Positions 34,183 through 60,146 of a stretch of DNA of 64,000 nt are shown piece after piece; within the stretch, counting starts at the first letter, position 1; every line of letters begins with the position of its first letter. The stretch comes from a virus: IMG/VR virus record IMGVR_UViG_3300022555_000009. The stretch is one strand, 5' to 3'. The translations under genes were made by a program, and so were the position numbers. The notes below the pieces were generated by a model. That model was not told the origin of the DNA. It made no database searches and saw only the letters and a list, made by a program, of their open reading frames with translations.

Positions 34183-34779
34183 TTAACCTGGTAGATTTCT
34201 CATTTGTAAAAGTGCCCAGCGCTTCCATTCTGGATTGCCTGAGGCATATACTGAACATAGTGTCTTATATAACCTAAAGGATACGCGAGGAGCGTACTTC
34301 AAATAACTTCTTAAGAATTTTAAAACTTCTTTCTTTTGTGTCATTGTAAGACTAGGCACCAGGTCAGCAAGCTGCGTCTCTATGAGGTCGGTGGCTTGCT
34401 CCTTTGTGTAGACGTATCGGATACAAGTTACACGGTCAGCTAAGGCCGTAGGAACATCCATATAGTTAGAGATAAAGATCATAAAAGATTCAAAGTAGAA
34501 CTCTACTGGAATCTCGTCATCCTCTTCAGTATCCAGATCGCTCATACCCTCGTCTTCGAATTCGCCACCACCACTAAACATATCTTCGTCATCTGGAGTT
34601 ATGGTCGCCTTCTTTTTCGGAGCTTCTATCATTCTAGATATAGAATTGCTTGGATCATGCTCTGGAAAAATCTTTTCATAGATCCGAGAAGGAACTATCT
34701 CGGATCCTGCATACTGCTCGTTTAAGTAGATATCGACGCCCCGGACATTGGCGTTTTTAATTAGGTTTACTTTCATCAT
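34183..34779 (-). CDS. C-terminal half of a split AAA+ ATPase
   Basis: IPVEFYFESFMIFISN (sensor 1), ALADR (Arg finger), helical lid. Confidence 0.6.
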   Translation of the reverse strand: MMKVNLIKNANVRGVDIYLNEQYAGSEIVPSRIYEKIFPEHDPSNSISRMIEAPKKKATITPDDEDMFSGGGEFEDEGMSDLDTEEDDEIPVEFYFESFMIFISNYMDVPTALADRVTCIRYVYTKEQATDLIETQLADLVPSLTMTQKKEVLKFLRSYLKYAPRVSFRLYKTLCSVYASGNPEWKRWALLQMRNLPG

Positions 34780-34796
34780 TTTAATTCAGTTCCTTT

Positions 34797-35867
34797 TTAG
34801 TGTCGTCTCATCTTGGTGTAAGATATTCGTCTGTCTTCTTTATCCGATTGAAGAGCTCCCTTGAGCATATTAGCCGCAGTCTGAACTTTCAATATAGCGT
34901 CATTATCATCCAGGATAACACAATAACCTTTTCTATAATCCCAAAGGATCTGCAATAAGCCAGTAAATCCAGCTATTCCTCCGGACTTATATACCGCCGG
35001 GCTATCTGTGCCATTGGAAGAACCCCATATACCTTCTCTTTTGAATACTTTTTTGACTGTGAAAGTCTTTCCAAGTCCAGGGTTACCATATACGAATAAT
35101 CCCTTTGGGACGTCTTCAAGCTGGGCACCTTGTATCTCACCTTTAATAGCTTTGGACATCCTAGTTAATTCATAATTATAGATATCCATATTATGCTTTG
35201 CTTCATCAGCGAAAACGGACTGTGCAAATAAATCTTCTTCCGATGGAGTTGTTACTTGCTGCGATGGACTAGATCCACCTCTAGTGACTTGGGCGCTACC
35301 TTCACCGTTACTCGATAGCCAGGCTTTTGCGTGTGTATTGAAAGCCATGCTGCTGATTTTTTTCTTGTCATTAATATCTGCCCATGCAAGATAAGACCGA
35401 TAGAGGTGTGCCATTTTTTTGCCATAGGCTTCATTACCTAAGGAGCTCAAAAACTCACCTACGTCGTCTTTTATCGACTCGCGAAGCGGGATAGTATGGA
35501 GAATATATTGCTCTTCTTGTACCTGAGCTACATAATTTTCTCCCGCGCCTTTCATAACTTCAGCTATCATATCCAGTTGATCCTGGGGATCAGTTGCGGA
35601 TAGGTCAATTCTAAAACCAGGTTTATCTAAGTCTCCGGGCTTAACCCACACAGAAACACCTACGATGTCGCCGTCAGAATTCAACTCCACTCGTATGGCC
35701 TGGGTGCCAGTATACCCGTAGTAGGAATCCTTTATACCTGTTCTATCCTTTATCTGGATAGCCACTGGTGAAAAGGATATCTCAGCACCCAGAGCTTGAG
35801 ATAACATTTGTATAAATGATTGAGCAGTCTGCGCAAATCGGTCACCCATTTCCTGAAGTTTTTTCAT
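34797..35867 (-). CDS. N-terminal half of a split AAA+ ATPase
   Basis: Walker A GNPGLGKT and Walker B VILDDND; ends at RRISYTKMRRH. Confidence 0.75.
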   Translation of the reverse strand: MKKLQEMGDRFAQTAQSFIQMLSQALGAEISFSPVAIQIKDRTGIKDSYYGYTGTQAIRVELNSDGDIVGVSVWVKPGDLDKPGFRIDLSATDPQDQLDMIAEVMKGAGENYVAQVQEEQYILHTIPLRESIKDDVGEFLSSLGNEAYGKKMAHLYRSYLAWADINDKKKISSMAFNTHAKAWLSSNGEGSAQVTRGGSSPSQQVTTPSEEDLFAQSVFADEAKHNMDIYNYELTRMSKAIKGEIQGAQLEDVPKGLFVYGNPGLGKTFTVKKVFKREGIWGSSNGTDSPAVYKSGGIAGFTGLLQILWDYRKGYCVILDDNDAILKVQTAANMLKGALQSDKEDRRISYTKMRRH

Positions 35868-35891
35868 ATATCATCCTTCTATTTTAATTAG

Positions 35892-36626
35892 TTAGGCGAC
35901 GTTGGCCAGTCTATTTCTCAGCTCTAAAAGAGATAAGTTCAGTATAGATTCCTCTTCCTCCTTCAGAGAGTTCACGTAAATCTTGTAGGTGCTACTTTTC
36001 CGGATAAATTGCAGCACCCCTATTACCACTTTCATCGCTGTTTTTAACGAAGACGTAGCGAAGACATCCTGAGTTACAGTTAGAGCAGATCTGATAGCGT
36101 CGTGTTCTTTGTTGAATAAGTAGTTTGCGGGATCCTCGACAGTCTTATCGTCTCCTGGCCTAAACATATACGTAAAGTTTAAGGTTTCAGCTAGGTCACC
36201 AAGCTCTATACTATTTGACTTAGTCTCTATGATGCTGTTTAAAGAAGCTACTCTATCCTCTTTCTGAAGCTTGTCGTTATACAAAGTTTCTTTAATCTTA
36301 AAGTAAAGATATCCCGCAAAAGATCTATCAATAAGAAAGCCAGGCCTATTGTACTGAGTCATTAATTTTATAGTAGAATCCACAGCTGCAGCGTCTACTA
36401 TATCTGGTGGCAAAAATATCTTTCCTTTCGTTTGTTTCAGTATAAGTGATCTTGCGTAGGGGACCATTTTTTGAAACATTTCTTTATAAAAAGGGCTTTT
36501 ATCATAATTTACAATTCTTTGATCTCCCTCAACTGTTTCAATTTTACATTCTCTCGTCGTTAAGTACTTTTCCTGTAACTCTGATAAACACACTTCAGTC
36601 ACAGGTTTGATTGCATATCTTGCCAT
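35892..36626 (-). CDS. Sigma-factor-like protein (late sigma candidate)
   Basis: Region-2-like helices: MVPYARSLILK, DSTIKLMTQY, SFAGYLYFKIK, ASLN. Confidence 0.5.
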   Translation of the reverse strand: MARYAIKPVTEVCLSELQEKYLTTRECKIETVEGDQRIVNYDKSPFYKEMFQKMVPYARSLILKQTKGKIFLPPDIVDAAAVDSTIKLMTQYNRPGFLIDRSFAGYLYFKIKETLYNDKLQKEDRVASLNSIIETKSNSIELGDLAETLNFTYMFRPGDDKTVEDPANYLFNKEHDAIRSALTVTQDVFATSSLKTAMKVVIGVLQFIRKSSTYKIYVNSLKEEEESILNLSLLELRNRLANVA

Positions 36627-36698
36627 TCGCGTTTCTCCAAAAAATAAAGGGAACCAGAAACGGTTCCCTTTTAATATAGTATCTCTTTTGAATATTAT

Positions 36699-37886
36699 TT
36701 ATCCAACGAGTTTTGCTAGATAGATTTCGAGATTACCAGCCTTAATATGAATTGCTTTCTTATCCATATCTGCTCTCAACTCCGCGGTTGTCTCCTTCTT
36801 TATCTTCCCTAAGAATTGCTTCAAAGAAGAATTAATAACGGTAACTTCGAAGTTATCAGAGTCCATTATCACAGATAACTCCCTATCAATTGAGCAAGAG
36901 CCTCCTCTCACACCAGAATCCTTTAAAAGAACTTTTAGTGTCTCCTTGTTACTCTTGTCGTATGCTAGAATAATAGGATCTAAATCTAAGGAAGAAGAAT
37001 AGAACCCGCTGAAGAAATTACTCGTGTCTCTCAGCGCGTTTACATTTATATCACATATCTTTTTCTTAGGGTATATAGCTTTGAGGTCATCTTCTGCAGG
37101 CGGCGCCACATTAGACATTGCGTTATTAAAAACACATTTCATTACGCTAGTTTCCAGGTAGGCTTTATTTCTATTTTCAAACACTATGAAATTTACCACT
37201 AAGCCACTTGAGAAGGCCTGCACAAAAACCCTCGCGATCTTTTTATGCAGAGGAATGTACTCCTTTTTAAGGACTCCTGTCTCCAAGCCCCCATAAATGT
37301 ATACGTGGGTTCTGTCATTAACAATAATCTTATCTCCGTATATACTAAGAGCATTATTCTTCTTTTCGTCAGAAGATATAAAAGGGAGGCAGGAACCAAT
37401 AGCCTCCCCGAACTCAGCCGAATTCTTTATGCTCACTAGGGACAGATCATAATTTTTGACTTTCATACTGTCTACTAACTGATCATGCAACTCTGAGATT
37501 TCAAAGAGTTGGCTGTCCTCCATAAGAATATGGGGGAGTGAAAGTTTATCCTTACCTACCTTAATATCGAAAGTCGAGTTGTCTCCATCTTGAGTTACTG
37601 CAATAGTCATTAGAGCGAGGTCATCGACTAGATAGCTATGCAGAATGTAAAAGAACTTTTGAGACTCGAGACGAATTCCTACGGGAGTCTTAAAGTCCTC
37701 AACCTCGCAGGGAATATCAAGTTCCACATATGCAGTCGAGTCCTTAACGACTAAGGTAACTGTCTTCTCATTTTGAATCCACAGGTTTAAGTTGAGAATA
37801 TCTGCTGCGTCGAATTCGAACCCACTTAGGATTTTTTCGTGATCAAACAGACCTTTAAAATCTATATTCTTTATCCTTAGGTTCAT
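36699..37886 (-). CDS. Putative DNA sliding clamp (beta-clamp-like)
   Basis: 395 aa with three-fold alpha/beta pattern; KIIVNDRTHV resembles the DnaN vatDghrl motif. Confidence 0.45.
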   Translation of the reverse strand: MNLRIKNIDFKGLFDHEKILSGFEFDAADILNLNLWIQNEKTVTLVVKDSTAYVELDIPCEVEDFKTPVGIRLESQKFFYILHSYLVDDLALMTIAVTQDGDNSTFDIKVGKDKLSLPHILMEDSQLFEISELHDQLVDSMKVKNYDLSLVSIKNSAEFGEAIGSCLPFISSDEKKNNALSIYGDKIIVNDRTHVYIYGGLETGVLKKEYIPLHKKIARVFVQAFSSGLVVNFIVFENRNKAYLETSVMKCVFNNAMSNVAPPAEDDLKAIYPKKKICDINVNALRDTSNFFSGFYSSSLDLDPIILAYDKSNKETLKVLLKDSGVRGGSCSIDRELSVIMDSDNFEVTVINSSLKQFLGKIKKETTAELRADMDKKAIHIKAGNLEIYLAKLVG

Positions 37887-41436: not shown

Positions 41437-41700
41437 ATGATGGCAATTACACTACACGACTGGAAGACTATTCGAGAACTGAGACTATGTACTGCTGCTG
41501 GTTTATTAAATCCCATGGAATTCAAGATACTGCTAGCTCCTATGGTTTTTTTGGATCAAGGAGACGCGGGCGATGATGAAGAGGATAGTATTGCTGACGA
41601 CCTACGACAAATAAAAAAGAATAAAAAAAGCTCCTCTGAAAAAGAGGAGCTTCCACCTGCTATAGGCTTTCATGTAGACTCAGAGGAAGAGGACGACTAA
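41437..41700 (+). CDS. Small acidic hypothetical protein
   Basis: AAGGAG RBS; late-type motif upstream. Confidence 0.55.
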   Translation: MMAITLHDWKTIRELRLCTAAGLLNPMEFKILLAPMVFLDQGDAGDDEEDSIADDLRQIKKNKKSSSEKEELPPAIGFHVDSEEEDD

Positions 41701-43289
41701 CATTTTGACCATCCACACATACACGTGACACATCCCTCTTTATACATAAAGCCATCTTTACTACCACAAGAGGGACATTCCATAGATGTCTTTACTTGCT
41801 CGCCGTTCTTGATGTATCCTTTAAGAACTCTCGCTAAGGATTTTGACCAGGAACCGAAACCATCGCTTTTACCTAGCTGTTCAACGATGAACTCGATAGG
41901 TGTTCCGTGCCTCAGAGCTGTACTCAGTAGACGCGTTGGTCCTTCGTACTCGTGATTGAATGTTTGGGCAATATTCTCAATTACGACCTTATCTACTCCG
42001 TTAGGAATAATGAGGTCGTAATTGCCTTTGCCCTTCTTACGAATGATACCTGTGTCTTTATCCTTTAGATAACTCCATTCTTCTCTTTGTTCAGATATGA
42101 ATGTCTCATATATGGATCCGCTGTACTTGCCGATTAGAGTTAGAAACTTTTGTCCCTTAATAGAAGTGACATAAATATCACACTCCAAGTCCTTAGGTCT
42201 TTTTGGCGCACCAGACCTCTCAATGTACTCAGGTCTCTTATAGCATACTTCTTTCTTCACTGGCTTAGTAGATAATATTCCCTTCATACTTCCCTGTGGA
42301 TTAAATGAAGTGAATCCTTTTAAGCCTTGCTTATAAGCAAACATGAAAAGATCTTTATAGGCCTCCAAAGTATATCCTTCGGGTAGGTTAGCTGTCTTAG
42401 ATATAGAGTGATCTATGTATTTTTGAAAAGCAGCCTGTACTCTTACCCCATCATAAGGATTCACTTCATTTGAAGTTATGAAGTACTCGGGAATTTTAGG
42501 TTCAAGCCCCGTCGATGTCATATGTGCTTTTGTATCATCGTAAGGGGTGTGAAGATATTCTAGCCAGGCCTTATCATACACAGTTTCTTTACGAGTCTCG
42601 TCTCCTTTTCCCGTCCTGATAGTTCTATCATACTGGAGAGCAAAGATGGGCTCAATACCTGAAGAGCAATTATTACCAACTGTCAATGAAATTGTTCCTG
42701 TTGGCGCACAAGTTAATATACCTATGTTCCTTAGACCACTTGCCCATATATCTTCATATAATTCCTCGGGGAGTGAGGTAATAAAAGAAGACTGATTAAG
42801 TCTTTTATCAAATGCAGGAAAGGTACCCTTTTCTCTCGCTAACTCAGCAGATTCACTGTATGCTTCGTCACGGAGTATTCTACCTATTCCGTCTGCAAGA
42901 TCTATACTTTCTTGGCTACCGTATTTTATTTTCATCATGGCACAGACGTCACCAAAACCCGTGAAGCCTAGTCCTATCCGCCTCCACTGTTTGGAAAAAT
43001 CTTCTATCCTCTTAAGAGGATATTTAGTTACATCTAAAACGTCATCAAGAAATCTAACTGCTGTGCGAATAGTTTTCGATAGAAGATCCTGATTAATCAT
43101 CGGGGAATCTCCAAAAGCCCCTGTCACAAAGGAAGGTAGGTTTAAGGATCCTAGACAGCATAAACTATATGCTGGCATCGAAATTTCGCCACAATTTTTA
43201 ATAACAGTGCCATTTGCATAAAAATTATGAGTATTCTCCACTGTTATATCATATACATCTTCGTTATCAGATGTTTCTATAATTAGCAT
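41697..43289 (-). CDS. nrdJ: Class II ribonucleotide reductase, C-terminal fragment preceded by split-intein IntC
   Basis: EDVYDITVENTHNFYANGTVIKN|CGEI, CCLGSLNL, RRIGLG, APTGTIS, SSGIEP, ISKT.N, C-terminal CPSC/EGC..C.CGWSKC. Confidence 0.9.
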   Translation of the reverse strand: MLIIETSDNEDVYDITVENTHNFYANGTVIKNCGEISMPAYSLCCLGSLNLPSFVTGAFGDSPMINQDLLSKTIRTAVRFLDDVLDVTKYPLKRIEDFSKQWRRIGLGFTGFGDVCAMMKIKYGSQESIDLADGIGRILRDEAYSESAELAREKGTFPAFDKRLNQSSFITSLPEELYEDIWASGLRNIGILTCAPTGTISLTVGNNCSSGIEPIFALQYDRTIRTGKGDETRKETVYDKAWLEYLHTPYDDTKAHMTSTGLEPKIPEYFITSNEVNPYDGVRVQAAFQKYIDHSISKTANLPEGYTLEAYKDLFMFAYKQGLKGFTSFNPQGSMKGILSTKPVKKEVCYKRPEYIERSGAPKRPKDLECDIYVTSIKGQKFLTLIGKYSGSIYETFISEQREEWSYLKDKDTGIIRKKGKGNYDLIIPNGVDKVVIENIAQTFNHEYEGPTRLLSTALRHGTPIEFIVEQLGKSDGFGSWSKSLARVLKGYIKNGEQVKTSMECPSCGSKDGFMYKEGCVTCMCGWSKC

Positions 43290-43634
43290 TTTTAAACGTC
43301 TCCTCTGTTAATTCCTCTAGTCATGGATTAACTCATCAGTTGGTTGAAGGTGCTGTGCTTCTACCCATCCTCTATTTTTTGTAAGTATTTTGTGATCCGG
43401 AGTACATTTGATCTGATTGCCAGTGGAGGTATCTGTTATCCTGATTATTTTCGTATTTTTTCTAGTGAGAAGAGCATTTGTTACTTTTTGGTATTCAGTT
43501 TGACGAGTCTCTTCGTTGAGAGACTTCGCAAATACTTCTTCCCCAGAAACTACCAATTCTACTAAGTCCTTCATTCTTATTTTTTGATTTACGCCCTTGA
43601 AAGAAATATCTACAACGGTATCTCCTGTTACGCA
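43194..43634 (-). mobile_element. Naturally split mini-intein (IntN 105 aa, IntC 32 aa), no endonuclease
   Basis: Blocks A and B in the upstream gene, F and G in the downstream gene; stop codons and a GAGGAG RBS lie between them. Confidence 0.88.
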
Positions 43635-44423
43635 AGGATTGACCGAATCTATATTAAAGGCGTACCAGCCGTTGTTATACCTATTTACTGTATCAATATT
43701 AAAGATGCCTGGTTCATTGTGCTCGAAGGCATTCTTGGCCAGGAGATCATAAAGATACTTAGCTTTAACTATTTTATAAACTTGCCCTTCCCAAACAAGA
43801 GGCCATTCACTATCTTCTTCTACAGCCCTGATAAATTCGTCTGTGAGAACTACAGAGAGGTTGAATTGGTCTAAAGCTTTTTTCTCGTCTCCGTGTTTTA
43901 CTGTAATGAACTCTTCGATGTCAGGGTGATCTATGTTCATCAGAGCAATATGAGCAGATCGACGACCTCCTCCAGTCTGTATGACTTTTGCAGACTCGTT
44001 GAATATTTTAAGGAAAGAAATAGGCCCGGATGACTTGCCTCCCTTTTTAATAGCAGCATCTTTAGGTCTCAAGTACGAAATATTAAAGCCAACGCCTCCC
44101 CCTGAAGCACTGATCATGGCATCATCGTGGAGAGCTCCGAAAATGCCCTCCATGCTATCTCCAACAGCTATAGTATAACAATTATTATAGTACTTCATTT
44201 TAGAATCCGGACGAGCATTAGCTAGGATTCTTCCACCGGGGATAAATAAGCCTTTTTCCATAATGTCAAGAAATTCGTGTTCCCACTGAGCTCTTACTTT
44301 CGGTTTTTCAGCCATCGCTATTTCAGTCGCAACACCCCTAAATACATCCTCAGGGGTTTTTTCGCCGTTAATCATATACTTCTGGCGAAAGATTTCTTCG
44401 GAGATAGATTGAGAGAACATCAT
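43317..44423 (-). CDS. nrdJ: Class II ribonucleotide reductase, N-terminal fragment ending in split-intein IntN
   Basis: PGGRIL, NC, GGGVG..S.LRP, QTGGGRR, HPDIEEFI..K, EPG, NP|CVTGDT...CTPDH..TKNRGWVEAQHL. Confidence 0.9.
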   Translation of the reverse strand: MMFSQSISEEIFRQKYMINGEKTPEDVFRGVATEIAMAEKPKVRAQWEHEFLDIMEKGLFIPGGRILANARPDSKMKYYNNCYTIAVGDSMEGIFGALHDDAMISASGGGVGFNISYLRPKDAAIKKGGKSSGPISFLKIFNESAKVIQTGGGRRSAHIALMNIDHPDIEEFITVKHGDEKKALDQFNLSVVLTDEFIRAVEEDSEWPLVWEGQVYKIVKAKYLYDLLAKNAFEHNEPGIFNIDTVNRYNNGWYAFNIDSVNPCVTGDTVVDISFKGVNQKIRMKDLVELVVSGEEVFAKSLNEETRQTEYQKVTNALLTRKNTKIIRITDTSTGNQIKCTPDHKILTKNRGWVEAQHLQPTDELIHD

Positions 44424-45186: not shown

Positions 45187-45639
45187 ATGCCTACACCTTC
45201 TTCTATGGAATACCTTAGTTTATTATACAAGGAATTGACTCGAAAACTGGAAACTATTCATAAATACATAGATGCCATCGACAATCAGGTCGGTGACATA
45301 TACCAGTCAGCTTATGAAGGCGTTTATATCTGTAAGCGCAAGTATGAGATCGTAGAAGACTATAAAGAAACAACTCCGAAGATTCATCCTCAAACTGAGT
45401 TCGCTTTTGAGCCGAGGCCCAATAAGCCTAAAAAAGGCGACACTGGACAGGATGTTCAGGAAACTATAGAAGACCTCAACGAAGATTTGAAATCTACCTT
45501 CGCTGAGATCAATTTCCGATTCTCTAAGCAGCAAGGAAACCTAGACAACCTAGGAAAGGTCCACTTAGAGTTACAGAATATTATTAATGAAATATTCCAA
45601 AATTGGAAAACCTTAAATGGAGATGAAGACAAGTTTTAA
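45187..45639 (+). CDS. Hypothetical late protein
   Basis: ACTAATTA upstream; GAGG RBS. Confidence 0.6.
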   Translation: MPTPSSMEYLSLLYKELTRKLETIHKYIDAIDNQVGDIYQSAYEGVYICKRKYEIVEDYKETTPKIHPQTEFAFEPRPNKPKKGDTGQDVQETIEDLNEDLKSTFAEINFRFSKQQGNLDNLGKVHLELQNIINEIFQNWKTLNGDEDKF

Positions 45640-47768
45640 CGCTTAATTACCAGGGTATCTGTTTCCTTTAGATTCCTCGCCTTCACTTCTTCTGTCTTCT
45701 CACCCCTTTTAACTTTTACTGTCTCGTCGGCAAAGAATACATATTCTTTGCCGTCTTGATTTATAATGACTTCATTAATTTCAAATTCTTTATTCCTGCA
45801 GAAGACATTCCAACCCGTCGTACTATGTACATCAGCGTTAGGATCTGTTTTATAGGCCTTCAGAAGGAACGCATCATTACCGTCCAAAGCTGCGAGCCTT
45901 AGTTGAAGCCCACTATAATCCATGGTTACTAGTTTACAGTGTTCTATATCAGGTACACTTACAATTTCTTTGACCAGATCAGATCCCAACGAATGAGATG
46001 GCAAATTCGTCCAATTAGGTTCTCGACAAGTATTGCGCCCGGTTTCCGCACCCATGACATTATATACAGGGTGGAGTTTGGACTTACCCAGATCCTCGTG
46101 AAACTTCAAGTGTTGTCTCCAACCCATATTCGTATCTGGTAGTCCTAAGAACGTCTTCTGCAACGTCTTGTATGCTCGGAGCTTCTTAAGAATAGTCGCT
46201 TCAGGTCTTCCCAATTGTTCCCACTGAGTTAACTGCTCGTCGCCTGTTAAATAATAGCCAGACTTAGACATACCACAATTTTCCCACCCAAGCCACTTAA
46301 GTATTTCACCTAATTGCTTACCACTATTAAAATTAGACTCGGGGTCATCTTCATCCGCGCAATCATCAAAGAAGCTATGAAAATCTAGACTCATTACCTT
46401 TAGTCCATGGCCGCCTAAGAATTCTTGTACCTTCAGCTTCTCGCTCAATTCTCTTTGAAGATCCTTCATCTCCTTATCTACATCGAGAGAATTCTTATCC
46501 CAAATATCCATGTCTACTTCGATACCCTGTATTTCAACAGGCACAAACATTTTCATCGCTGGCATTCTTTTCTTTTCAAAGTACTCGCGCACAGTCCACC
46601 AACCCTCTACAGGCGGAGGCCAAGCGAGGTCAATCCAGTTTATTCTTTTCTCCATCGCTTCATACACCTGGAAATTAATGATAGCGTCCATAGTCGCGTA
46701 TTGTGATAAGATTTTTTCAGGTATGTCCAAGTACGTCTTTGGATTGTATCTTTTTTTATAGTCGTCTAAGTCTCTATCATAACCTCCAAATTGCGTATAA
46801 TAGAAAGCTAAAGACTTCAAACTATTAGATCGAGACTCATTCAAAGTCTGTGCCATGGGTAGAGTATCAATATCAATTTTCGCTGTAGATATGCCTGCAT
46901 TCAAAAGAAACTTGACATCGAATTTTAAATTTTGTCCTATCTGGATCTTATTTCTAAAAAACTCGGTAAGTAGATTCTTATCTATTAGATACCAGGGAAT
47001 ATAGAAGCCTTCCCTGCCATCAAAAGACATCGTAATGCAACCTATGCGGTCATTAACAAAATCAAACCCTGATGTTTCCAAGTCCCAGCATACCTTACAT
47101 GATACGGGAGTCCAAGCTTTAAGAAAATTATCAGCCTCATCTGCTTCCATAAGCTTGGTTATTTTTAAGCGCGTGGGACAAGGAGGTTCACTCAAGCCAT
47201 CGTAATTTTTTAAAATCTTTTTGATTTGTATTTCTGCGAAATGCATTCTAAAAGAATCTCTGGGCAAAATTCCCATTGGAGTTATTTTAAATATGTCTTC
47301 TAGAGCGTCAATAGGAAATACGTTACACTCATATTCTCTCGAGTAAAAGTATGTTTGCGTGAACACTATGTCATAAAAACTATTTATGTGAATATTAGAA
47401 TCGCCGGTTATACCATAAATGGCACGACCGGACGTTATCATGATAGTCTTGTCTGTCATGTATGAAAGAATATTCGCTGCGTTTCTCTTATAGTACTCCG
47501 CGACTCCCTCTTTTTTTATCTCTTCTGAAGTCTTGCTGTACTTCGAAAGACTCACAATTCTATAATTGTAGCCTTGAGGTATCTGCCTGTCTAACCATTT
47601 TGTAAAGGCATCCAAGTGCCTTTGATTAGGGAATGTCTCTAAGACAATAATGAGATGAGTCTCATCGTTACTATGAGCTCTCTCGTACAGAAGAGCTCCT
47701 TTTGTTTCCAAGCCGCTCCCCTTTTTAGAAGAGCCTAAAGATACATCGCCGAATGTGAATGCTGCCAT
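45636..47768 (-). CDS. polA: Family A DNA polymerase, N-terminal fragment (3'-5' exonuclease plus motif A; motifs B and C absent)
   Basis: WDLETSG, GQNLKFD, YATMDA, TGR...PNWTNLP, DYSGLQLR, DVHSTT; then a short tail and stop. Confidence 0.85.
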   Translation of the reverse strand: MAAFTFGDVSLGSSKKGSGLETKGALLYERAHSNDETHLIIVLETFPNQRHLDAFTKWLDRQIPQGYNYRIVSLSKYSKTSEEIKKEGVAEYYKRNAANILSYMTDKTIMITSGRAIYGITGDSNIHINSFYDIVFTQTYFYSREYECNVFPIDALEDIFKITPMGILPRDSFRMHFAEIQIKKILKNYDGLSEPPCPTRLKITKLMEADEADNFLKAWTPVSCKVCWDLETSGFDFVNDRIGCITMSFDGREGFYIPWYLIDKNLLTEFFRNKIQIGQNLKFDVKFLLNAGISTAKIDIDTLPMAQTLNESRSNSLKSLAFYYTQFGGYDRDLDDYKKRYNPKTYLDIPEKILSQYATMDAIINFQVYEAMEKRINWIDLAWPPPVEGWWTVREYFEKKRMPAMKMFVPVEIQGIEVDMDIWDKNSLDVDKEMKDLQRELSEKLKVQEFLGGHGLKVMSLDFHSFFDDCADEDDPESNFNSGKQLGEILKWLGWENCGMSKSGYYLTGDEQLTQWEQLGRPEATILKKLRAYKTLQKTFLGLPDTNMGWRQHLKFHEDLGKSKLHPVYNVMGAETGRNTCREPNWTNLPSHSLGSDLVKEIVSVPDIEHCKLVTMDYSGLQLRLAALDGNDAFLLKAYKTDPNADVHSTTGWNVFCRNKEFEINEVIINQDGKEYVFFADETVKVKRGEKTEEVKARNLKETDTLVIKR

Positions 47769-48392: not shown

Positions 48393-49031
48393 ATGTCAAT
48401 CAACGTGTGTTCCTATAAGATTACCGAGGCTGGTAGTCTTACGAATCCCGAGCCGGCTTCGTTTGCCGAGGTGTCCAAGCCCGACATGAGTCTCCGCAAG
48501 GGAATCACGGTTTACTTCGATACGAAGAAGTATACGGTTCTCGGTCAGGCGCCCATCTACGCGCTTATCAGCGAGGCAGGGGAGGACGTGGCAATTCGAG
48601 TGCGCAAGAAGCACCTCTACGTCCCGAACGACGTTCTCAACGGCACCGCGATCGTGAAGATGGCGGCTCCTGCGAAAGTCAAGGTCGCCAAGGTCAAGGT
48701 CGAGAAGGCTCCTAAGGAGCCCAAGGCTCCGAAGGCGAAGAAGACACTCATTCCTGCTGTCGTGCAGGGTGCGTTCGAGACGCGCATGGCAGAGTTCCGT
48801 ACCGACAGTGGTCGGAGCATCAAGGGCCTTCGCATCGAGAACACGGACGGTGCATCCTTCCGCGTCATTGTCGTGGATCCTACTAAGTCTGGCTGGGTTC
48901 TCATGGCCTCAGATAAGTGGGACATTGGAGCCTACAAGTTCTACAACATCGATACCATGGCGTCGAGAGATTTCGATCGCGCGGCCGATAAGCCGGGCCC
49001 TGGCGATTCCTCGATTGTGTGGCCGAAGTGA
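48393..49031 (+). CDS. Hypothetical early protein with Lys/Ala/Pro linker
   Basis: AAGGAG RBS; hairpin downstream. Confidence 0.7.
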   Translation: MSINVCSYKITEAGSLTNPEPASFAEVSKPDMSLRKGITVYFDTKKYTVLGQAPIYALISEAGEDVAIRVRKKHLYVPNDVLNGTAIVKMAAPAKVKVAKVKVEKAPKEPKAPKAKKTLIPAVVQGAFETRMAEFRTDSGRSIKGLRIENTDGASFRVIVVDPTKSGWVLMASDKWDIGAYKFYNIDTMASRDFDRAADKPGPGDSSIVWPK

Positions 49032-50292: not shown

Positions 50293-50400
50293 ATGCCCGT
50301 ATAGCTCTCCAAAGCGCCTTAGGTCCTCTCGTTATAACTCAATTTTCCTAGTAAGAAGAGAGAATTTATGCCGTTACACTAATTGATAAGGAGCCTCAGA

Positions 50401-50997
50401 ATGTATATCGATGAGTATCAACCTATGTCAGAAATGCACACATGGATGAAGGGACGTGGAGTTGATGTAAATGTATACATATGCATTCAATCGGTGCTGA
50501 GTTTGGGAGACGAACGAAAAAAAGATCTTGACGTCTTTTTAAAAACATTCGGAGGACCATTCACTCTCCAGCATAATGGATCTTTTCATGAATACGATTG
50601 GAATATTTACACGAAGCCTAGCATAGGATACTATTACAATAAATACTTAGCCAGCGGCCCAGGGTATGATAATCCCGGAAAGCTTTACACTATAGATTTA
50701 AAAGATGGATCCTATGCATCAGAGCACACGCATGTTTTTATCAAAACAGCTTTATATGAAGTTTTAAAAAGACATGAGGATCTTCATTGGTATATCGTCA
50801 ATGATTTCATGGACTCAGACTCCGGACCCTCTAATTCTAAATTCAGAGGCCATGAAGTTCTATCGACGGAAGAAGTAAAACCGTTTCTTGAAGATGAGCT
50901 GGTCAAAGCGGTTGCGTCGTGGAAGATGAGCAAAGAGAATTATAATGAAGGTGGGGCCGGACAAATGCCAAGAATGATTAAGTTAGGCCTATTATGA
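50401..50997 (+). CDS. Hypothetical protein (start ATG 50401)
   Basis: AAGGAG RBS; ACTAATT upstream. Confidence 0.65.
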   Translation: MYIDEYQPMSEMHTWMKGRGVDVNVYICIQSVLSLGDERKKDLDVFLKTFGGPFTLQHNGSFHEYDWNIYTKPSIGYYYNKYLASGPGYDNPGKLYTIDLKDGSYASEHTHVFIKTALYEVLKRHEDLHWYIVNDFMDSDSGPSNSKFRGHEVLSTEEVKPFLEDELVKAVASWKMSKENYNEGGAGQMPRMIKLGLL

Positions 50998-51476
50998 TTG
51001 ATGTAGATTTTCTATATGCAGTATTCCAGCCCTGCCCTCCTCGTAACATAGTATGGTATTGGTTAGACCCTCAAAAACAAAGTTACAAACGAGTATCTAA
51101 AATTGATTCTTTCATAGAATTTGTTGAGAATAAAAATAGAAAAGTGCTACCTCAGATGAAGGAGGCCCTATGCACGTACTCTTTTTGGATGTGGAATCAA
51201 GTCGACAATAGGGTGATTTTATTACATCCTTCCGATGCACAAGACCGCACCTATAGAGATCCGCTCGCCAGTTACTTTAAGAAGGGGCTAAAAGGGCAGG
51301 ACCCCTTTGCACCAGAAGAGCAAGATCCTTTGAGTCACTTATATAAACTCGGCTTTCAGATGCCCAATGAAGATGATATTAAAAATCTCAGAGTCAGAAT
51401 GACCCCTACAAAACAAAAATCTTTTTTGGCGCGCATAGGAAACATCTTACCAGGAAATACCTCGCGAAAAAAATAG
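50994..51476 (+). CDS. Hypothetical protein
   Basis: Coupled ORF ending in TAG. Confidence 0.65.
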   Translation: MIDVDFLYAVFQPCPPRNIVWYWLDPQKQSYKRVSKIDSFIEFVENKNRKVLPQMKEALCTYSFWMWNQVDNRVILLHPSDAQDRTYRDPLASYFKKGLKGQDPFAPEEQDPLSHLYKLGFQMPNEDDIKNLRVRMTPTKQKSFLARIGNILPGNTSRKK

Positions 51477-51488
51477 CTATATTCTAGT

Positions 51489-52469
51489 ATGAGGAATCAT
51501 CCATATAGTACAGATCAAATAAAGTTAGCCCTGCGAAAACTCGGCGTCAAGTTTCCCTCGAGCATCGACTCTAAAGATAGAGCCATGGCTCATTGTCCTT
51601 TCCACTCTGACAGTACAGCTTCGATGTCTATCGATTTTACACGTGGAATCTTTCACTGCTTCTCTTGTGACGCATCCGGCTCCATCAACACCTTATCTGA
51701 AAAAATGACAGGAAGAAAACTCGATGTTCTTCTAGGCGTCGATACTTCTTTCTCCATGTTTTCAGGTCATATAAAACAAGAGTACACCCCAAAACCAATT
51801 AATGAAGAAGATGTCACGATTGATGTGCGAGGCATCGTCGCTCCTTGGACCCATGTGCCAGAAGCTATTGGGTATGTAAAATCTAGATTCATACCTCCAA
51901 GAATAGCAACGGCGATGCAAATGGGGTTCATCAAAGAAGCGTATGTGAATGGCACGTACTATGAGGATCGCTTAGTGATTCCTATCTATGGAAAATCTGG
52001 CAAGCTTATCAATCTTGAAGGTAGGGACGTGACAGGAACTCATAAACTAAAGTGCTTATATCCTCACGGTATAACGAAGACAATCTATGAATGGTATAAG
52101 CTTGACAAAGAGAAGCCTTTATATGTCGTTGAGGGACTGACGAAGATGGCTTGTCTTCGCGGCGATGATTATTTTGCGAATTCGACCACTATCTTCGGGG
52201 CATCCGTAACCGCATATCAGATGGATTTACTTAGCGAATTTAAGAAGGTCGTGTTAATACCGGACAATGATGAGCCTGGAAAAAAGGTTATCGATACCTT
52301 TAAAAATAGATTAAGAACTAAATTCGATGTTATGAGAATACAGGATACAGCAGCAAAAGATATTGATGAGATTCCTCGTAAGCTTGGTCTCGGCGTCGAG
52401 GAATACAGAAAGAAGGGCGGATTTCTCATACAAGGTTTCACTTCTTTTCTTTTCGGGGAATTTGCCTGA
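51489..52469 (+). CDS. dnaG: DNA primase (CHC2 Zn finger plus TOPRIM)
   Basis: CPFH..FHCFSC, RLVIPI, EGR, VVEG, PDNDEPG, KDIDE. Confidence 0.88.
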   Translation: MRNHPYSTDQIKLALRKLGVKFPSSIDSKDRAMAHCPFHSDSTASMSIDFTRGIFHCFSCDASGSINTLSEKMTGRKLDVLLGVDTSFSMFSGHIKQEYTPKPINEEDVTIDVRGIVAPWTHVPEAIGYVKSRFIPPRIATAMQMGFIKEAYVNGTYYEDRLVIPIYGKSGKLINLEGRDVTGTHKLKCLYPHGITKTIYEWYKLDKEKPLYVVEGLTKMACLRGDDYFANSTTIFGASVTAYQMDLLSEFKKVVLIPDNDEPGKKVIDTFKNRLRTKFDVMRIQDTAAKDIDEIPRKLGLGVEEYRKKGGFLIQGFTSFLFGEFA

Positions 52470-52494
52470 CTAATTTAAATGAAGGAGATCAAAC

Positions 52495-52776
52495 ATGATC
52501 GAAGAGACTAAGATAGTCGAGCTCGTAGAGGTATTTGAGGACGCGTACGACAAACAAGAATCTGCATCCGTCTTAACCAAGGAAGCAAGAGAGGAATTAA
52601 AAAGCTACGCAGAAAATAGTGAAATGGATCCTAAAGCCATTTCAGAGATTTATTCTACTTATGCAAAATGGAGGCGAGGTAAGTTTCACTGGGGTCCAGA
52701 AGGAGACGCAGACGACTTCACAGATATTCTTGTGGCCGTAATGGACAGAGTAACTGGTGTAGATAAGGGAGTGTAA
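52495..52776 (+). CDS. Small helical protein, possible dsDNA-binding (DsbA/GapR-like)
   Basis: Size and EAREELKSYAE..MDPKAI pattern. Confidence 0.4.
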   Translation: MIEETKIVELVEVFEDAYDKQESASVLTKEAREELKSYAENSEMDPKAISEIYSTYAKWRRGKFHWGPEGDADDFTDILVAVMDRVTGVDKGV

Positions 52777-52781
52777 CATAA

Positions 52782-53345
52782 ATGTTATGTGAAAAAATAG
52801 ACTCGCAATCGTATATGGAGGATTTTAAAAAGAGGTTTGTAAACTTCGTAGAAAAATCTCCTGTTAAGCTAAGCATCATAATCACACCGACTGAAGTGCA
52901 AGTCATTGATGAGTATACACAACAAGGGCACGCGTTCACCTGGGACTTCTCAATTCCGGTTAAGTCCTTTATTCACGGCATTAAGCAAATCCTAGTAGAA
53001 AGATGCTACCCGGTGATTCATAAGGTAGAACATATCGAGGTTCCTGTTTCTGAGAAGGAGCAGATTGAACTTGCAAGCAAGGGCTTGCCTCTCGATAATA
53101 TTCCTACGCGAGTATACAAAAAGAGAGTAACGGAGTATCTCATAGACAAGGTAGTTATATACAAGGATATGTTTATTCTTGTGGACCGTGCAACAGGGCA
53201 ATCCTATAGGTATAAATTAAATAAGAGCTCTGTGTTCTTCTTGAAGGATTTACGGAGTAAGAAGTTCAATAGGGAGACTGCAGGTGATTTCTTTTTTGCT
53301 AATGCAACTCTTATGAACGAGATTCACCAGAAAGAGAGTTTTTAG
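52782..53345 (+). CDS. Hypothetical protein
   Basis: 187-aa ORF in the replication operon. Confidence 0.65.
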   Translation: MLCEKIDSQSYMEDFKKRFVNFVEKSPVKLSIIITPTEVQVIDEYTQQGHAFTWDFSIPVKSFIHGIKQILVERCYPVIHKVEHIEVPVSEKEQIELASKGLPLDNIPTRVYKKRVTEYLIDKVVIYKDMFILVDRATGQSYRYKLNKSSVFFLKDLRSKKFNRETAGDFFFANATLMNEIHQKESF

Positions 53346-53752
53346 TGGTGGCAAAAAGGTCCTCACAAGATCCAAAATGGGTAGAACTAAAAAAGAAAGT
53401 ACGTAAGAGAGATAAGTCGTGTAGGTTGATGAAAATACTATCTGCAAAAGAAATGATTCTTTTGGCGAAGCATGCTCCCCGAGCTCAGCTGATGACTTGC
53501 GACACTGCTCACTGCTTTGGTGTTGGACCATACCCCCATATGTGTTACAACATAGAGAATACAGTTCTCTTAAATAGATTCAGTCATGAGTGCTTAGATT
53601 CTTTTAAGAGTCCTGTCACTGGGGAGAAGATAGAGGAAAGAGAAGTTGAGCTTTGGTGGGGTCGAATTCTTGGTGGCGGTATTTATTTAAAATTAAAAGA
53701 GGAGTCGACCTCACATAAAGTTAAGGAGACCATAAATGAGAGTGAAGCATAA
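53345..53752 (+). CDS. HNH/NinG-like nuclease
   Basis: VRKRD..C, DTAH, YNIEN..LLN...H. Confidence 0.55.
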   Translation: MVAKRSSQDPKWVELKKKVRKRDKSCRLMKILSAKEMILLAKHAPRAQLMTCDTAHCFGVGPYPHMCYNIENTVLLNRFSHECLDSFKSPVTGEKIEEREVELWWGRILGGGIYLKLKEESTSHKVKETINESEA

Positions 53753-54011
53753 GTTTGATGACAGCTTAGAATTAGAAGCGAGGCGGTATGCCGGCGGGGA
53801 GTTCGAGCCTGGCTTTCCCAAAGAATGGGTGCGCCTAGGTAATTTTGATTTTGGTCTAGATGGATCATATCTAATAGCGCCTGTATTCAATGGCAATATA
53901 AGAGTAGAGAAAGGAGATTGGATTCTTCACAATAGGGATGGTAATTTTCTTTTTATGACGGATAGCGAATTCAAATTGCAGCACAATGAGGTAATGTATG
54001 GAACAGATTAA
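53736..54011 (+). CDS. Hypothetical phage protein
   Basis: GNIRVEKGDWIL...G.F....F pattern. Confidence 0.6.
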   Translation: MRVKHKFDDSLELEARRYAGGEFEPGFPKEWVRLGNFDFGLDGSYLIAPVFNGNIRVEKGDWILHNRDGNFLFMTDSEFKLQHNEVMYGTD

Positions 54012-54147
54012 AGAAACAGTGGTCCTTGACAATAAGGAAGTCACTAAGGACGAGCTTCAGGAAGCCAAAAAGCAAGATACTCCCACTCAGAAAATCTTGG
54101 AAGTGAACCCAGGTACCTTCAAGACTCTGAAGAGACTTCAGGAATAA
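53998..54147 (+). CDS. Small protein (49 aa), not in the track
   Basis: GAGGT RBS; MEQIKETVVLD... Confidence 0.5.
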   Translation: MEQIKETVVLDNKEVTKDELQEAKKQDTPTQKILEVNPGTFKTLKRLQE

Positions 54148-54178
54148 CCGCTCATATAATATCATATATTATAGTTAA

Positions 54179-55144
54179 ATGATATTATATGATGTGTTAA
54201 TTTTCGACAGTTTAAATTTTCTGTACCGAGTGAGAAGTGATAAGAATGTAGACTGCAGCAATCTTGTGAAGATAAGCAATAAGGTTGTTATGGTTGATCT
54301 CATTAGAGCCTACCTCGATACAGTCTTTTACTTAGAACAAAAATACCTGGCCTCTGATGGTCGGGTATTTTTGTTGTTTGATAATGCCACTAGTAGGGAC
54401 GAACTCAAGAAGATGTTCGCTCCTCTTGCGCCCACTAAGTCAAGAAAAGAAGTAGATAATGCCTACAAGGAAAATAGAATGACGGAGTCGAGAGAGTTTT
54501 ATAATACTCTCGATTTAATCAAATACTATTACATGGTGTCTTCTTCAAAGTATCGTACGGCTCGCATACAGGGACTGGAAGCAGATGACTTAGTTAAGCC
54601 TTGTATTGATTCTATTCCCAATAGTAAAATTTTAATGATTACTAATGACTCTGATTGGGCGAGATACTTAGATAGCAACACCCATTATCTTCCTCACACA
54701 TTCGAGCCTCCTGTAACTGATGTGATGTTTCAAGCTAAGCGAGGGTTCTATCCAACTGAGGAGAAGATTATTTTAGATAAGATTCTTTTCGGTGACTCCG
54801 CTGATAATGTAAAAGAGGTCTTGCCTGAGCTACCGAAGGCTCTGAGAGAACAGATTCGCAGCGATTTCGATTGCATTCAAAATTTTATTCTAAATTATGA
54901 ATTATATACACCGTTAAAAGAATACGTGACCTTAGTGAGAGATAGACTACCAGAATTGCGAATCGCATATCAGATGGTGGCTACAATTCCTGTAAGTGAC
55001 AAGCACTTTTTTTACAGTTGTTCAATAGGCCGGGATTCTAAGGTTCAGCGAACAGCTATAGAATCTGTCTTGAAGATAAACAATGTTAATGTCACATTTG
55101 AGTTCGGCGATATAAAGGTTCCGAGGGTTAATCCAGTTGGGTAA
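54179..55144 (+). CDS. 5'-3' exonuclease / T4 RNase H (FEN family)
   Basis: LIFDS.N, FD, YKENR, EADD, TNDSD, GDSADN. Confidence 0.85.
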   Translation: MILYDVLIFDSLNFLYRVRSDKNVDCSNLVKISNKVVMVDLIRAYLDTVFYLEQKYLASDGRVFLLFDNATSRDELKKMFAPLAPTKSRKEVDNAYKENRMTESREFYNTLDLIKYYYMVSSSKYRTARIQGLEADDLVKPCIDSIPNSKILMITNDSDWARYLDSNTHYLPHTFEPPVTDVMFQAKRGFYPTEEKIILDKILFGDSADNVKEVLPELPKALREQIRSDFDCIQNFILNYELYTPLKEYVTLVRDRLPELRIAYQMVATIPVSDKHFFYSCSIGRDSKVQRTAIESVLKINNVNVTFEFGDIKVPRVNPVG

Positions 55145-56123
55145 GATAGTATGTTTTGGCGATCTTCATCTTAGCGATAATAGACCGTGGTCTTTGGATG
55201 TTGCCAAAGAAATAGTGAAGTATTTATGCTCCCTGGAACATAATAATGAAGATAACACCGGTGTCTTTTTAGGTGACATGACAGAGTCCGTTATCAACTC
55301 GGGTGAGGTAGTACAGCAATTATTAGAGCTCTTAACTTGTTTAAGGCTCAAAGAAACGTATGTTATCATGGGTAACCATGATCTTAAAATGAAGAAAGGT
55401 AAGATGACCTCGCCTCTGTCTTTCCTGAATGAGAAGGGTTTAGTACCTAAGAATATTCACCTTGTTAGAACCATGAGCACTGTGGTACTAGAAGGAATGA
55501 CAGTTCTTATGTTACCACATATTCATAATGACGGCATTCATTCAGTAAAAGATTATGAAGACATTACCGCGTCAGTGCCTGTCGATATTGTCATGGGCCA
55601 TTTTGCGGACGAGTCTGACAAGGCTATGAGGGAAATCCTAGTAAATATTAGCAATATAAATCCTAAGTATAGGTGTTTGGGGCACATACACTCCGCTATA
55701 ACGCCTTCGTACACCGGGTCTTTAGTACCTAACTCTGTGTCCGAGAAAGGTAGAAATCGACATATTAGAATTTATGAGAAAGACAGGGAGCCTATCAATG
55801 AAGCTATACCTGTCATATGTGACTACTATGATGTAGAATATCCTAAAGCACTGCCGAAAGTAGATGCTATTATACCTATATGGACTGTTTATAAATGTAA
55901 GGACCCCTTCATAGCAAGACAAACTTACGGAGATATTTTCATCAGAAAATGTGTATATGATATAGGAATTGATCTCACGAATTTCCATGAGTACTGTTCT
56001 TTAGGAAAATCCACGAATAAGAAAACAGTTAAGGATCTCATAGAATCCTTCCTGGACGAAAATCCCGAGGAAACTCCGGACGAAATAAAAGCAAAAATCC
56101 TGGAGTACTGTCCCACATACTAA
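55137..56123 (+). CDS. Mre11/SbcD-like recombination nuclease (gp47-like)
   Basis: GDLH, LGD, GNHD, GHF, LGHIH, YTGS. Confidence 0.85.
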   Translation: MGKIVCFGDLHLSDNRPWSLDVAKEIVKYLCSLEHNNEDNTGVFLGDMTESVINSGEVVQQLLELLTCLRLKETYVIMGNHDLKMKKGKMTSPLSFLNEKGLVPKNIHLVRTMSTVVLEGMTVLMLPHIHNDGIHSVKDYEDITASVPVDIVMGHFADESDKAMREILVNISNINPKYRCLGHIHSAITPSYTGSLVPNSVSEKGRNRHIRIYEKDREPINEAIPVICDYYDVEYPKALPKVDAIIPIWTVYKCKDPFIARQTYGDIFIRKCVYDIGIDLTNFHEYCSLGKSTNKKTVKDLIESFLDENPEETPDEIKAKILEYCPTY

Positions 56124-56132
56124 CTATGAATA

Positions 56133-57209
56133 ATGGAAATCGTTGCCGATAGATTCTTTGATCAATCTAAATTCGCCAGTACTATTGCCATAGTAAGAAT
56201 GAACCTCGAACAATTCCTCGCAAATAATATCTTGCGAGAGGATGGTTCGAGGATTTTTTATGCATCGAAGTCCTGGGCTTTTCGACAGAGAATCAATCTG
56301 CTGAATATGAACTCTAGTCCTGACTACTCCTCCCTGAATTTTCCTTTTTGTGCTTATTACCGGAATGGTAATTGGACAGTAGGTCCTGAAGTAGCGCCAG
56401 GCGTACCGGCAGCAGATGCTGCTATACTGGGCACAACCGATCTAGGACCTAATGTACGATTCTTCAATGCTCAGTTCCCTTTCAGCGTCGTCTTCTTTTT
56501 TAACAGAGAAGACGACGCTCAATTAGCCTACGAGGCCTTAATGTGGATTAAGCATCCTAGGCCTATTCAAACAACAGCCCCTGGCTTGGTGTATAAGGAC
56601 ACAGCTATTGATATACCTATACGATATAAGATAGAAGATATTCAATTTGCTCCCGAGTATAAAGAAAAAAATTGGCTGGAAATGAATCGCGTATTCCCTA
56701 TTGAGGTCTCCTTGAAGGTAGACTCAGTAATAATACGAGCTCAGCCTCAGACTCCGAATGCTTTATATCCTACAGACGACGATACTATTTACATTACGAA
56801 GAAGGTCATTTTAGATTTCTTGTCCTTCAAAAACGATATGCTAGTGGATTCGGATGGGGTACAAGAGATTCTTTTGGGCTCTTTCATTCCAGACCCCGAT
56901 TTAAATGGAACCTTCACAGCAGGAGTCTCAACAGACACAAGCGTAACTCTACATTGGACCTATAATCCTCTGTGTACGGCCCTGTATGAGCCGAATGTGA
57001 CTATTCTTTGCAATAATGGTACTTCTGTGCAAGTTCCAAAGACAGCGCTGACTGCAACCATAAGTGGATTGAATTTAGGCTCCACATATACATTTAAAAT
57101 TCAATTTTTTGCTTTATCAGGAGCCATAAATCAATACTCAGTAACTGCGCTCACAACTGGTAGTCAATCCAATCTCAATCTCAAGGGAATGATAGGATAC
57201 ACCTGGTAA
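56133..57209 (+). CDS. Tail terminator/completion-like protein with C-terminal FN3-like domain
   Basis: Directly upstream of the sheath; SVTLHW..ATISGLNLGSTYTFKI FN3 signature. Confidence 0.55.
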   Translation: MEIVADRFFDQSKFASTIAIVRMNLEQFLANNILREDGSRIFYASKSWAFRQRINLLNMNSSPDYSSLNFPFCAYYRNGNWTVGPEVAPGVPAADAAILGTTDLGPNVRFFNAQFPFSVVFFFNREDDAQLAYEALMWIKHPRPIQTTAPGLVYKDTAIDIPIRYKIEDIQFAPEYKEKNWLEMNRVFPIEVSLKVDSVIIRAQPQTPNALYPTDDDTIYITKKVILDFLSFKNDMLVDSDGVQEILLGSFIPDPDLNGTFTAGVSTDTSVTLHWTYNPLCTALYEPNVTILCNNGTSVQVPKTALTATISGLNLGSTYTFKIQFFALSGAINQYSVTALTTGSQSNLNLKGMIGYTW

Positions 57210-57264
57210 TAGCCAGAAGACTAATTAGATATGGTGTTATTTACTATAATAGAGAGGCTGCAAG

Positions 57265-59400: not shown

Positions 59401-59413
59401 GGAGTTTTAGAAA

Positions 59414-60079
59414 ATGGGTACAGGAATGATAACAACGCTCCTAAGTTCCGGAGCTGATACTTTTACTAATCTGTTTGATGTTGAGGTAACCTTCCCTACC
59501 TTCTTAGCGGACGATCCTATTATTATAGGGAATACGACGAATGCCATCACAATGTCTGTCAGGGCCCAGGGATTTACTCCTCCAACGGGATTTACGGTAC
59601 CGGAATATGAAGTCAAGTATAAAGCAGTAACTATAAAAAAGCCCGGCGCGACCATACAAGGCGACAGAACATTTTCTTTAAAATTCAGGGCCAACGCGAC
59701 TCTGGGGCTATACGATTCTTTCATGAAATGGAAACATTTATTAGTTGATCCTTCGGGCGAAAGCAATCTAGCTTTAAATATTTTTTATACCAATCAATCC
59801 GGCGATGCTCGGGGGGGGAAGTACGTAGGTCACGTAGAAGTCAAAGCTCTTTTTCCAGATGACACTGCTTTTACAAGTGATCCTAATACCAGTGATTCCT
59901 GGATCTTTAGTAAAGTTCTTGTTTTAGATGTTACCTTAGATCCCTTCTCCAGGGATGGAGGAAATACGCCTCAAACTTTTGATGTTAAATTTATGTATGT
60001 GTATATGTCTGAGCCTGGGCATAATCCCGATGTTAATGTAGATGATACCGTAGTTCCGGTCGTAGCTCTGAACTCCTAA
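59414..60079 (+). CDS. Tail tube protein
   Basis: Follows the sheath; NLFDV, P...V.Y...KKPG, terminal F.VKF.Y. Confidence 0.75.
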   Translation: MGTGMITTLLSSGADTFTNLFDVEVTFPTFLADDPIIIGNTTNAITMSVRAQGFTPPTGFTVPEYEVKYKAVTIKKPGATIQGDRTFSLKFRANATLGLYDSFMKWKHLLVDPSGESNLALNIFYTNQSGDARGGKYVGHVEVKALFPDDTAFTSDPNTSDSWIFSKVLVLDVTLDPFSRDGGNTPQTFDVKFMYVYMSEPGHNPDVNVDDTVVPVVALNS

Positions 60080-60098
60080 TTAGAAACTTTTAAAAGTA

Positions 60099-60134
60099 AA
60101 TAACCCGAAGATGAATTTCTTCGGGTTATTTTTT
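60099..60134 (+). terminator. Intrinsic terminator
   Basis: aataacccgaaga...tcttcgggttattttt. Confidence 0.8.
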
Positions 60135-60146
60135 GACTAATTAACT

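Follow-up and report, generated by a model that had tools for sequence, protein, structure and literature searches.

What becomes of a family A DNA polymerase whose gene stops between motifs A and B, and what is the short tail with which it stops? The question is raised by a locus in IMG/VR virus record IMGVR_UViG_3300022555_000009, a virus genome of 170,592 bp with direct terminal repeats, of which we analysed a stretch of 64,000 nucleotides (the window). On the minus strand, positions 45636..47768 encode a protein of 710 amino acids (aa) that is assigned by the open reading frame (ORF) listing, Pfam and PHROG 17 as the N-terminal half of a PolA (the N-half). It comprises, in this order, an N-terminal domain, an exonuclease, a thumb, a palm with motif A and a tail of 54 aa. 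The Pfam profile PF00476 (DNA_pol_A) is matched at residues 477-659 with its positions 29-198 of 381 (E 6.8e-19), and by this profile coverage the ORF is without motifs B and C. Motif A, DYSGLQLR, with the catalytic Asp617 (residues 617-624; 45897..45920, minus strand) is present, and the final polymerase segment ahead of the break is DVHSTTGWNVF (residues 646-656; 45801..45833, minus strand). Directly after Phe656 the tail begins with Cys657 (45798-45800), reads CRNKEF...ETDTLVIKR and runs into the stop codon (residues 657-710 and stop; 45636..45800, minus strand). The answer that we propose is that the polymerase is encoded by two genes, that the tail is likely a splicing-dead N-intein remnant, and that this remnant probably helps to hold the two gene products together.

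The missing part of the enzyme is found elsewhere in the genome. A search with PF00476 across all six frames of the genome matched profile positions 200-376 at G000:C1:168730-169383 (-), in a gene of 265 aa (the C-half; G000:C1:168655-169452 (-), equal to L002:1426-2223 (-)) which is located 38.2 kb from the N-half and on the same strand, while it gave no further polymerase piece inside the window and no signal in any frame downstream of the N-half stop. The C-half reads MKITHRKVMRPITEIEF...RQMAKAVNFGFLFG (motif B)...MVHDSVDF (motif C), the motifs themselves being RQMAKAVNFG and VHDSVDF, respectively. Since the N-half covers positions 535-1043 of the PHROG 17 profile and the C-half positions 1051-1227, so that the halves abut at 1043/1051, they make up one complete polymerase with no part missing, the extra sequence being the 54-aa tail of the N-half and ~10 residues at the start of the C-half. 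This head of the C-half is formed by its first 8-10 residues, MKITHRKV..., after which polymerase sequence resumes. The gene caller placed the start of the C-half at the second ATG (257 aa), and the first ATG is the likely start because the upstream MKITHRKV matches the heads found in the family, such as MIEIRKRKV and MIEIQRRTV. A sequence-only reading of the window had described a polymerase that stops before motifs B and C with a 54-aa tail at 45636-45800, with no ORF for either motif in the window and with the next gene on the opposite strand, and had from this postulated a distant C-terminal half. The ORF, Pfam and the six-frame search all agree with that description, the next gene being a convergent ORF of 150 aa without Pfam or PHROG family at 45187..45639 (+), the stop of which overlaps the polymerase stop, and the gene described above is the postulated half.

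A polymerase that is cut short and has its neighbouring gene on the opposite strand could be thought of as a pseudogene, as the result of misassembly, or as a gene that an intron or a recoding site interrupts. However, the same stop and a conserved tail recur in independent assemblies. P0002 (704 aa, 64% identical and from another sample) stops at the same point and carries the conserved tail, and among the 150 best matches of a HMMER search of 1.84 billion cluster representatives at least 27 are tail-bearing N-halves, these 150 matches falling into two populations, namely N-halves of ~660-730 aa with the tail and full-length polymerases of 850-1000 aa. With the C-half as query, a word-indexed search likewise returned ~30 stand-alone C-halves of 255-278 aa, all of which begin M-x-I-x-(K/R)...R-x-I-T-x-E-F and then continue into motif B. 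Two other virus records contain both halves as well, spaced by 33 kb and 4.5 kb. In the relative G005 (285 kb) the halves are ~4 kb apart with six genes between them (L155:1990-3777, G005:C1), namely four small ORFs, a gene for an SPFH/Band 7 protein and, directly ahead of the C-half, one for a SegE-like GIY-YIG endonuclease, and this layout resembles the 'fractured gene' arrangement. Furthermore, the catalytic residues are invariant in both halves, and in alignment A3 of the N-half D617, Q622 and R624 of motif A are invariant together with D646, H648 and T651. As the split is conserved in relatives it is neither damage nor misassembly, and with an intact partner gene in the genome and no polymerase-like frame past the stop, the notion of a pseudogene, a misassembly or an interrupted gene is hardly credible. 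Neither an intron nor any other RNA was detected by Rfam at permissive thresholds close to either of the gene ends, and RNA trans-splicing was dropped as an explanation for that reason. That the split is real and that the partner gene exists can be regarded as almost certain. Most of the relatives were drawn from Logan and ENA assemblies; alignment-based scans of IMG/VR found only a few relatives, and exact-pattern scans of IMG/VR with single proteins found none. Cultured phages searched by tblastn gave only distant PolAs with less than 27% identity, whose matches end at about residue 656 and none of which has the tail.

The origin of the tail became apparent only with profiles, since isolated tails match no Hint family in Pfam up to E 10. 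Ordinary inteins exist in the same polymerase clade at another site, inside motif B (AK/C..., the slash marking the intein boundary), as a complete mini-intein in P0106 and as split inteins in P0065, P0069, P0129, P0131 and P0161, with the Pfam family Intein_splicing matching the N-intein (IntN) of P0069 at E 2.7e-6. When 29 tails were aligned by hhalign with seven IntN sequences of the clade, the probability was 96.7, P was 3e-10 and the score was 52.5, as against at most 18.2 when the columns were shuffled (150 times) and 14.7 for the reversed control. In this alignment tail columns 9-55 are paired with columns 58-104 of the 108 in IntN, a stretch that begins at block B and extends to the IntN end. 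In a phmmer search of all PDB sequences with the window tail, the best match was the Aes123 PolB1 split intein 9hth (E 0.012), in which tail positions 14-52 align with intein positions 81-119 and INQDGKEYVFFADETVKVKRGEKTEEVKARNLKETDTLV pairs with IKAGGKEVIVTADHSVMVKRDGKIIDVKPTEMKQTDRVV, and a profile of seven tails had its best PDB match in the NrdJ-1 intein (E 0.019). When tail and head were compared together with three full inteins by hhalign with thin profiles, they were colinear with these through the split site and into the first strand of the C-intein (IntC), which gives weak support (P 7.6e-4, probability 25).

Predicted structures bear on the same matter. In some relatives the tail and head are contiguous, and the insertion of one of these (L008:4108-4332, 75 aa, with alignment A4) was modelled by AlphaFold2 with a mean predicted local distance difference test (pLDDT) score of 93.9 as four short strands and one long strand, the long strand (residues 52-64) being the head, located within the sheet. 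A Foldseek comparison of this model with 350,542 PDB chains placed inteins, Hedgehog and BIL Hint domains at nearly all of ranks 1-31, with E values of only 0.15-1 and probabilities of up to 0.99, and in VIA-align 49 of the 50 listed entries were Hint proteins (Z up to 7.7, TMq 0.43-0.61). The model spans only part of the Hint fold, corresponding in mini-inteins to about residues 20-40 to 115-150, and a Z below 8 is insufficient alone; the structural comparison gains its weight from the sequence statistics and from a list of neighbours that consists almost exclusively of Hint proteins. The window tail modelled alone by AlphaFold2 has four strands and a pLDDT of 85, and gave no significant Foldseek match, with only 9hth standing out by 45% identity over a core of 33 columns. 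Its first 10 residues fall to a pLDDT of ~60, as would be expected if the partner strand is missing, whereas the corresponding region is confident in the contiguous model, which includes the head strand. Taken together it is highly likely that the tail is derived from an intein, of which it appears, as judged from the alignments, to keep a vestigial Cys1 together with everything from block B up to the IntN end.

If the tail derives from an intein, the two halves might still be ligated by protein trans-splicing through an atypical yet active split intein. The window tail does start with Cys at the exact junction, the genome is rich in inteins that look functional (a split NrdJ intein, a LAGLIDADG intein in a 1413-aa ORF and one more outside the window), and certain inteins are reported to splice without the block B His (PMC6333167). 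However, little of the splicing machinery is left in the family. At tail position 1, Cys is found in the window and in ~8 of 29 tails, and is otherwise mostly Ala, Val or Phe or is unaligned, with Ser also among the replacements. In block B the window has FFADETVKV where 9hth has VTADHSVMV, whereby both the Thr and the His are gone, replaced by Phe and Glu, respectively, and other tails have F-A/P-H-E or L-G-G-E/Q in place of the TxxH motif. The tail lacks most of the N-terminal IntN region, and the heads are with their 8-10 residues too short to contain blocks F and G; they have no conserved Asn or Gln ahead of a nucleophile, and indeed an Asn/Gln + Cys/Ser/Thr junction is absent from every head. 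The conserved T/S of R-x-I-T belongs to the (I/M)(T/S)LEEF segment of the polymerase itself, which is present in unsplit relatives as well. Tail and head amount to ~65 residues, about half a Hint domain, and in contiguous relatives the insertion simply stays in frame. Ligation by trans-splicing is accordingly very improbable, and we consider it very likely that no splicing occurs. The sequence-only reading had already taken the tail for a Hint fragment, probably non-splicing, which lacks TxxH and most of block A, and this holds up on both counts: the profile alignment, the split-intein matches in the PDB and the Hint-dominated neighbours of the modelled domain speak for its origin, and FADET at block B and the lack of a C-terminal splice junction for its inactivity.

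The site of the insertion is found in three states among the relatives. In most full-length polymerases D-x-H-S-x-T...F is separated from motif B by ~21-25 residues; in P0051 (on a 239-kb contig), P0179, P0056 and P0078 this distance is 70-80 residues, made up of the tail directly followed by the head in one chain; and the remaining relatives are split directly after the E-T-D-x-L end of the tail. In a FastTree phylogeny built without the tail columns, 26 split polymerases, three contiguous ones with the insert and one contiguous one free of it (P0038) form one clade with a local support of 99. Since split and insert-bearing forms make up a single clade, the insertion arose once, and since the contiguous forms are nested among split ones, parsimony favours the split as the ancestral state, with the contiguous forms as apparent re-fusions, although the order of events is not proven. 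P0038 itself (910 aa) is a contiguous PolA in which the first ~9 tail residues (AKGKKFDID) and the last part of the head (REISLAEF) are retained but the beta core is not, and it has the look of a polymerase that was first re-fused and then lost the remnant by deletion.

How might two such halves then form one enzyme? We propose that the polymerase is a two-subunit enzyme, in which the 710-aa subunit 1 would provide the exonuclease, the thumb and the palm with motif A, and the 265-aa subunit 2 would supply the remaining fingers (motif B and O-helix) and motif C of the palm. The break would fall inside a small beta-domain inserted in the fingers, representing the remains of a former split intein, with the tail corresponding to Cys1 and the block B-to-C-terminal part of the N-intein and the head to the first strand of the C-intein. 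With the splicing chemistry lost, no peptide bond would be formed, and the basic head strand would dock onto the acidic sheet of the tail and complete it non-covalently, by the same strand complementation as between the halves of true split inteins. Such docking would bring motifs B and C next to motif A and thereby assemble one active site. In agreement with this proposal, the break is located at the canonical split-intein site, where the final strand of IntN gives way to the first strand of IntC. The tails furthermore have a mean net charge of -3.5 (26 of 29 negative, one neutral) and the heads a mean of +3.5 (all positive), and the same polarity with an acidic N part and a basic C part is known from NrdJ-1, NrdA-2 and IMPDH-1 (Dassa et al., PMC2677866). 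It is from the break site, the opposite charges and the difference between the tail-alone and contiguous models that we read the pair as a non-covalent clasp, and tail and head probably do join the halves in this manner; we further infer that their binding is needed for assembly.

An alternative notion is that the insertion is an accessory domain, binding for instance DNA or a replisome partner, that the fingers reassemble by themselves, and that tail and head are not the joint at all. It is in line with this that contiguous relatives keep the whole insertion despite needing no clasp, and that the tails of the Aeromonas phage Aeh1 NrdA are reported to be dispensable for the heterodimer and needed only for higher-order assembly (PMC3045599). 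An accessory domain does not, however, account well for a break exactly at the canonical split-intein site or for acidic tails and basic heads like those of true split inteins (PMC2677866), and the nested relative P0038 dropped the insertion only after it had become contiguous. We consider the accessory domain unlikely, if clearly less so than trans-splicing. It should also be mentioned that several points weigh against the clasp and the intein ancestry on which it builds. The existence of contiguous insert-bearing forms and of the insert-free P0038 means that the polymerase fold is independent of the insertion, and the helices of the fingers might hold the halves together without a clasp. The sequence and fold matches in the PDB are individually weak (phmmer E ~0.01; Foldseek E 0.15-1), and for the equation of the head with a strand of IntC there are 8-10 residues, the AlphaFold2 model and the thin-profile alignment to go by. 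The start codon of the C-half is moreover ambiguous, there being no clear Shine-Dalgarno sequence before the first ATG. Regarding this clade of large-phage polymerases as a whole, we are inclined, with some reservation, towards a history in which a decayed split intein became a permanent heterodimerisation module of ~65 residues, made of a 54-aa acidic sheet and a ~10-aa basic strand, with the split being ancestral and occasionally followed by re-fusion or loss.

The arrangement recalls several known systems but is not identical to any of them. Like the split inteins gp41-1, NrdJ-1 and IMPDH-1 (Dassa et al. 2009, PMC2677866) and Aes123 PolB1 (9hth), it involves an enzyme in two genes with an IntN-type tail on the first piece, an IntC-type head on the second and a break at the canonical site. 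Those inteins have however ~100 + 35-40 residues as compared with 54 + ~10 here, and they splice, whereas the PolA pair is without conserved Cys1, TxxH, blocks F and G, terminal Asn and +1 nucleophile. In the 'fractured gene' layout (Dassa et al. 2009) the intein halves sit on either side of a free-standing homing endonuclease gene within a single locus, while the present halves are 38.2 kb apart and Pfam and PHROG find no endonuclease family in the neighbouring ORFs; the halves have drifted apart in this genome. The NrdA-a/NrdA-b pair of Aeromonas phage Aeh1 with its mobE-derived tails (Crona et al. 2011, PMC3045599) is likewise an essential enzyme broken by a mobile element and rebuilt without RNA or protein splicing, but it is a ribonucleotide reductase encoded by adjacent genes, and its tails are there described as unique and made by endonuclease insertion, and are not intein remnants. 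A family A polymerase in two products that are predicted to reassociate is known from T7-like cyanophages, for example S-SBP1 (Czernecki et al. 2023, PMC10201439). In that case the exonuclease domain is separated from the polymerase domain, with plain solvent-exposed termini and adjacent genes, whereas the present PolA is cut within the polymerase domain, between motifs A and B and inside an insertion that is probably intein-derived; the word 'intein' is absent from the text of Czernecki et al. (PMC10201439). The abstract of a preprint on PhiKZ (Basu et al. 2026, PMC13648687) describes DNAP-N and DNAP-C, two separately encoded halves of a replicative polymerase in a stable 1:1 complex, which is however of family B, and this abstract makes no mention of an intein-derived module. 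A natural split-intein clasp that no longer splices was not described in any paper that we found, though the literature coverage was incomplete and this is absence of evidence only.

Some further features of the gene and its surroundings may be added. The exonuclease of the N-half is a 3'-5' exonuclease domain at residues 212-376 (46641..47135, minus strand; PF01612, DNA_pol_A_exo1, E 2.8e-14). The N-terminal domain ahead of it, residues 1-200 (47169-47768, minus strand), belongs to no Pfam family, and residues 1-~200 are yet conserved across the clade. UDG-like domains are reported to be built into some PolAs (Czernecki et al. 2023, PMC10201439). In the window the NrdJ is split by a canonical split intein into ORFs at 41697-43289 (-) and 43317-44423 (-), which are in the same frame and 27 nucleotides apart with two stop codons and no endonuclease between them; the IntN on the N piece has TPDH, and the IntC on the C piece ends ...GTVIKN/C. 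At the NrdJ site the 64%-identical relative has a contiguous intein with a LAGLIDADG endonuclease (L004:2988-6893, 1301 aa). The PolA of this relative is in three pieces, as its C-half is cut in motif B by a split intein (L005:4744-5184 and L005:5206-6027). The 146-aa middle piece carries AKS/CFSKGTEIL..., and the motif-B IntC appears to end ...SQGQ/CNFG, that is, with a terminal Gln after Gly and not with His-Asn. The ORF of 1413 aa at 18130-22371 (-) has its intein at about residues 634-971 (Hint_2, Intein_splicing, LAGLIDADG_3 and Hom_end). PolA had been proposed as the third fractured enzyme of the region after NrdJ and an AAA+ ATPase, and of these the NrdJ split is real, while a fractured AAA+ ATPase was not found among the scanned ORFs (34183-37886 and 50383-63205). 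Four consecutive ORFs at 34183-37886 (-), of 198, 356, 244 and 395 aa, have no Pfam family. The segment 48001-50000 has a G+C content of 0.54 as against ~0.38-0.42 in neighbouring stretches and may be a recently acquired island; its ORFs, such as 48393-49031 (212 aa), have no Pfam family.

The common view of inteins is that of selfish elements, which have to remove themselves by splicing if the host protein is not to be killed. If the proposed clasp is true, the binding interface of a split intein has here been retained though the splicing machinery is gone, and a selfish element has been exapted as a structural protein-protein 'Velcro' which makes it possible for the genes to be tens of kilobases apart. 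The pair would also constitute a small natural docking module that does not ligate, and thereby a candidate tool for protein engineering. The known range of PolA splits is in any event widened, the one published PolA gene split that we found being at the boundary between exonuclease and polymerase. The clasp would furthermore explain how an essential polymerase survives being cut between motifs A and B with its halves scattered in the genome, and it would indicate an evolutionary route by which a 'fractured gene' may become a stable multi-subunit enzyme.

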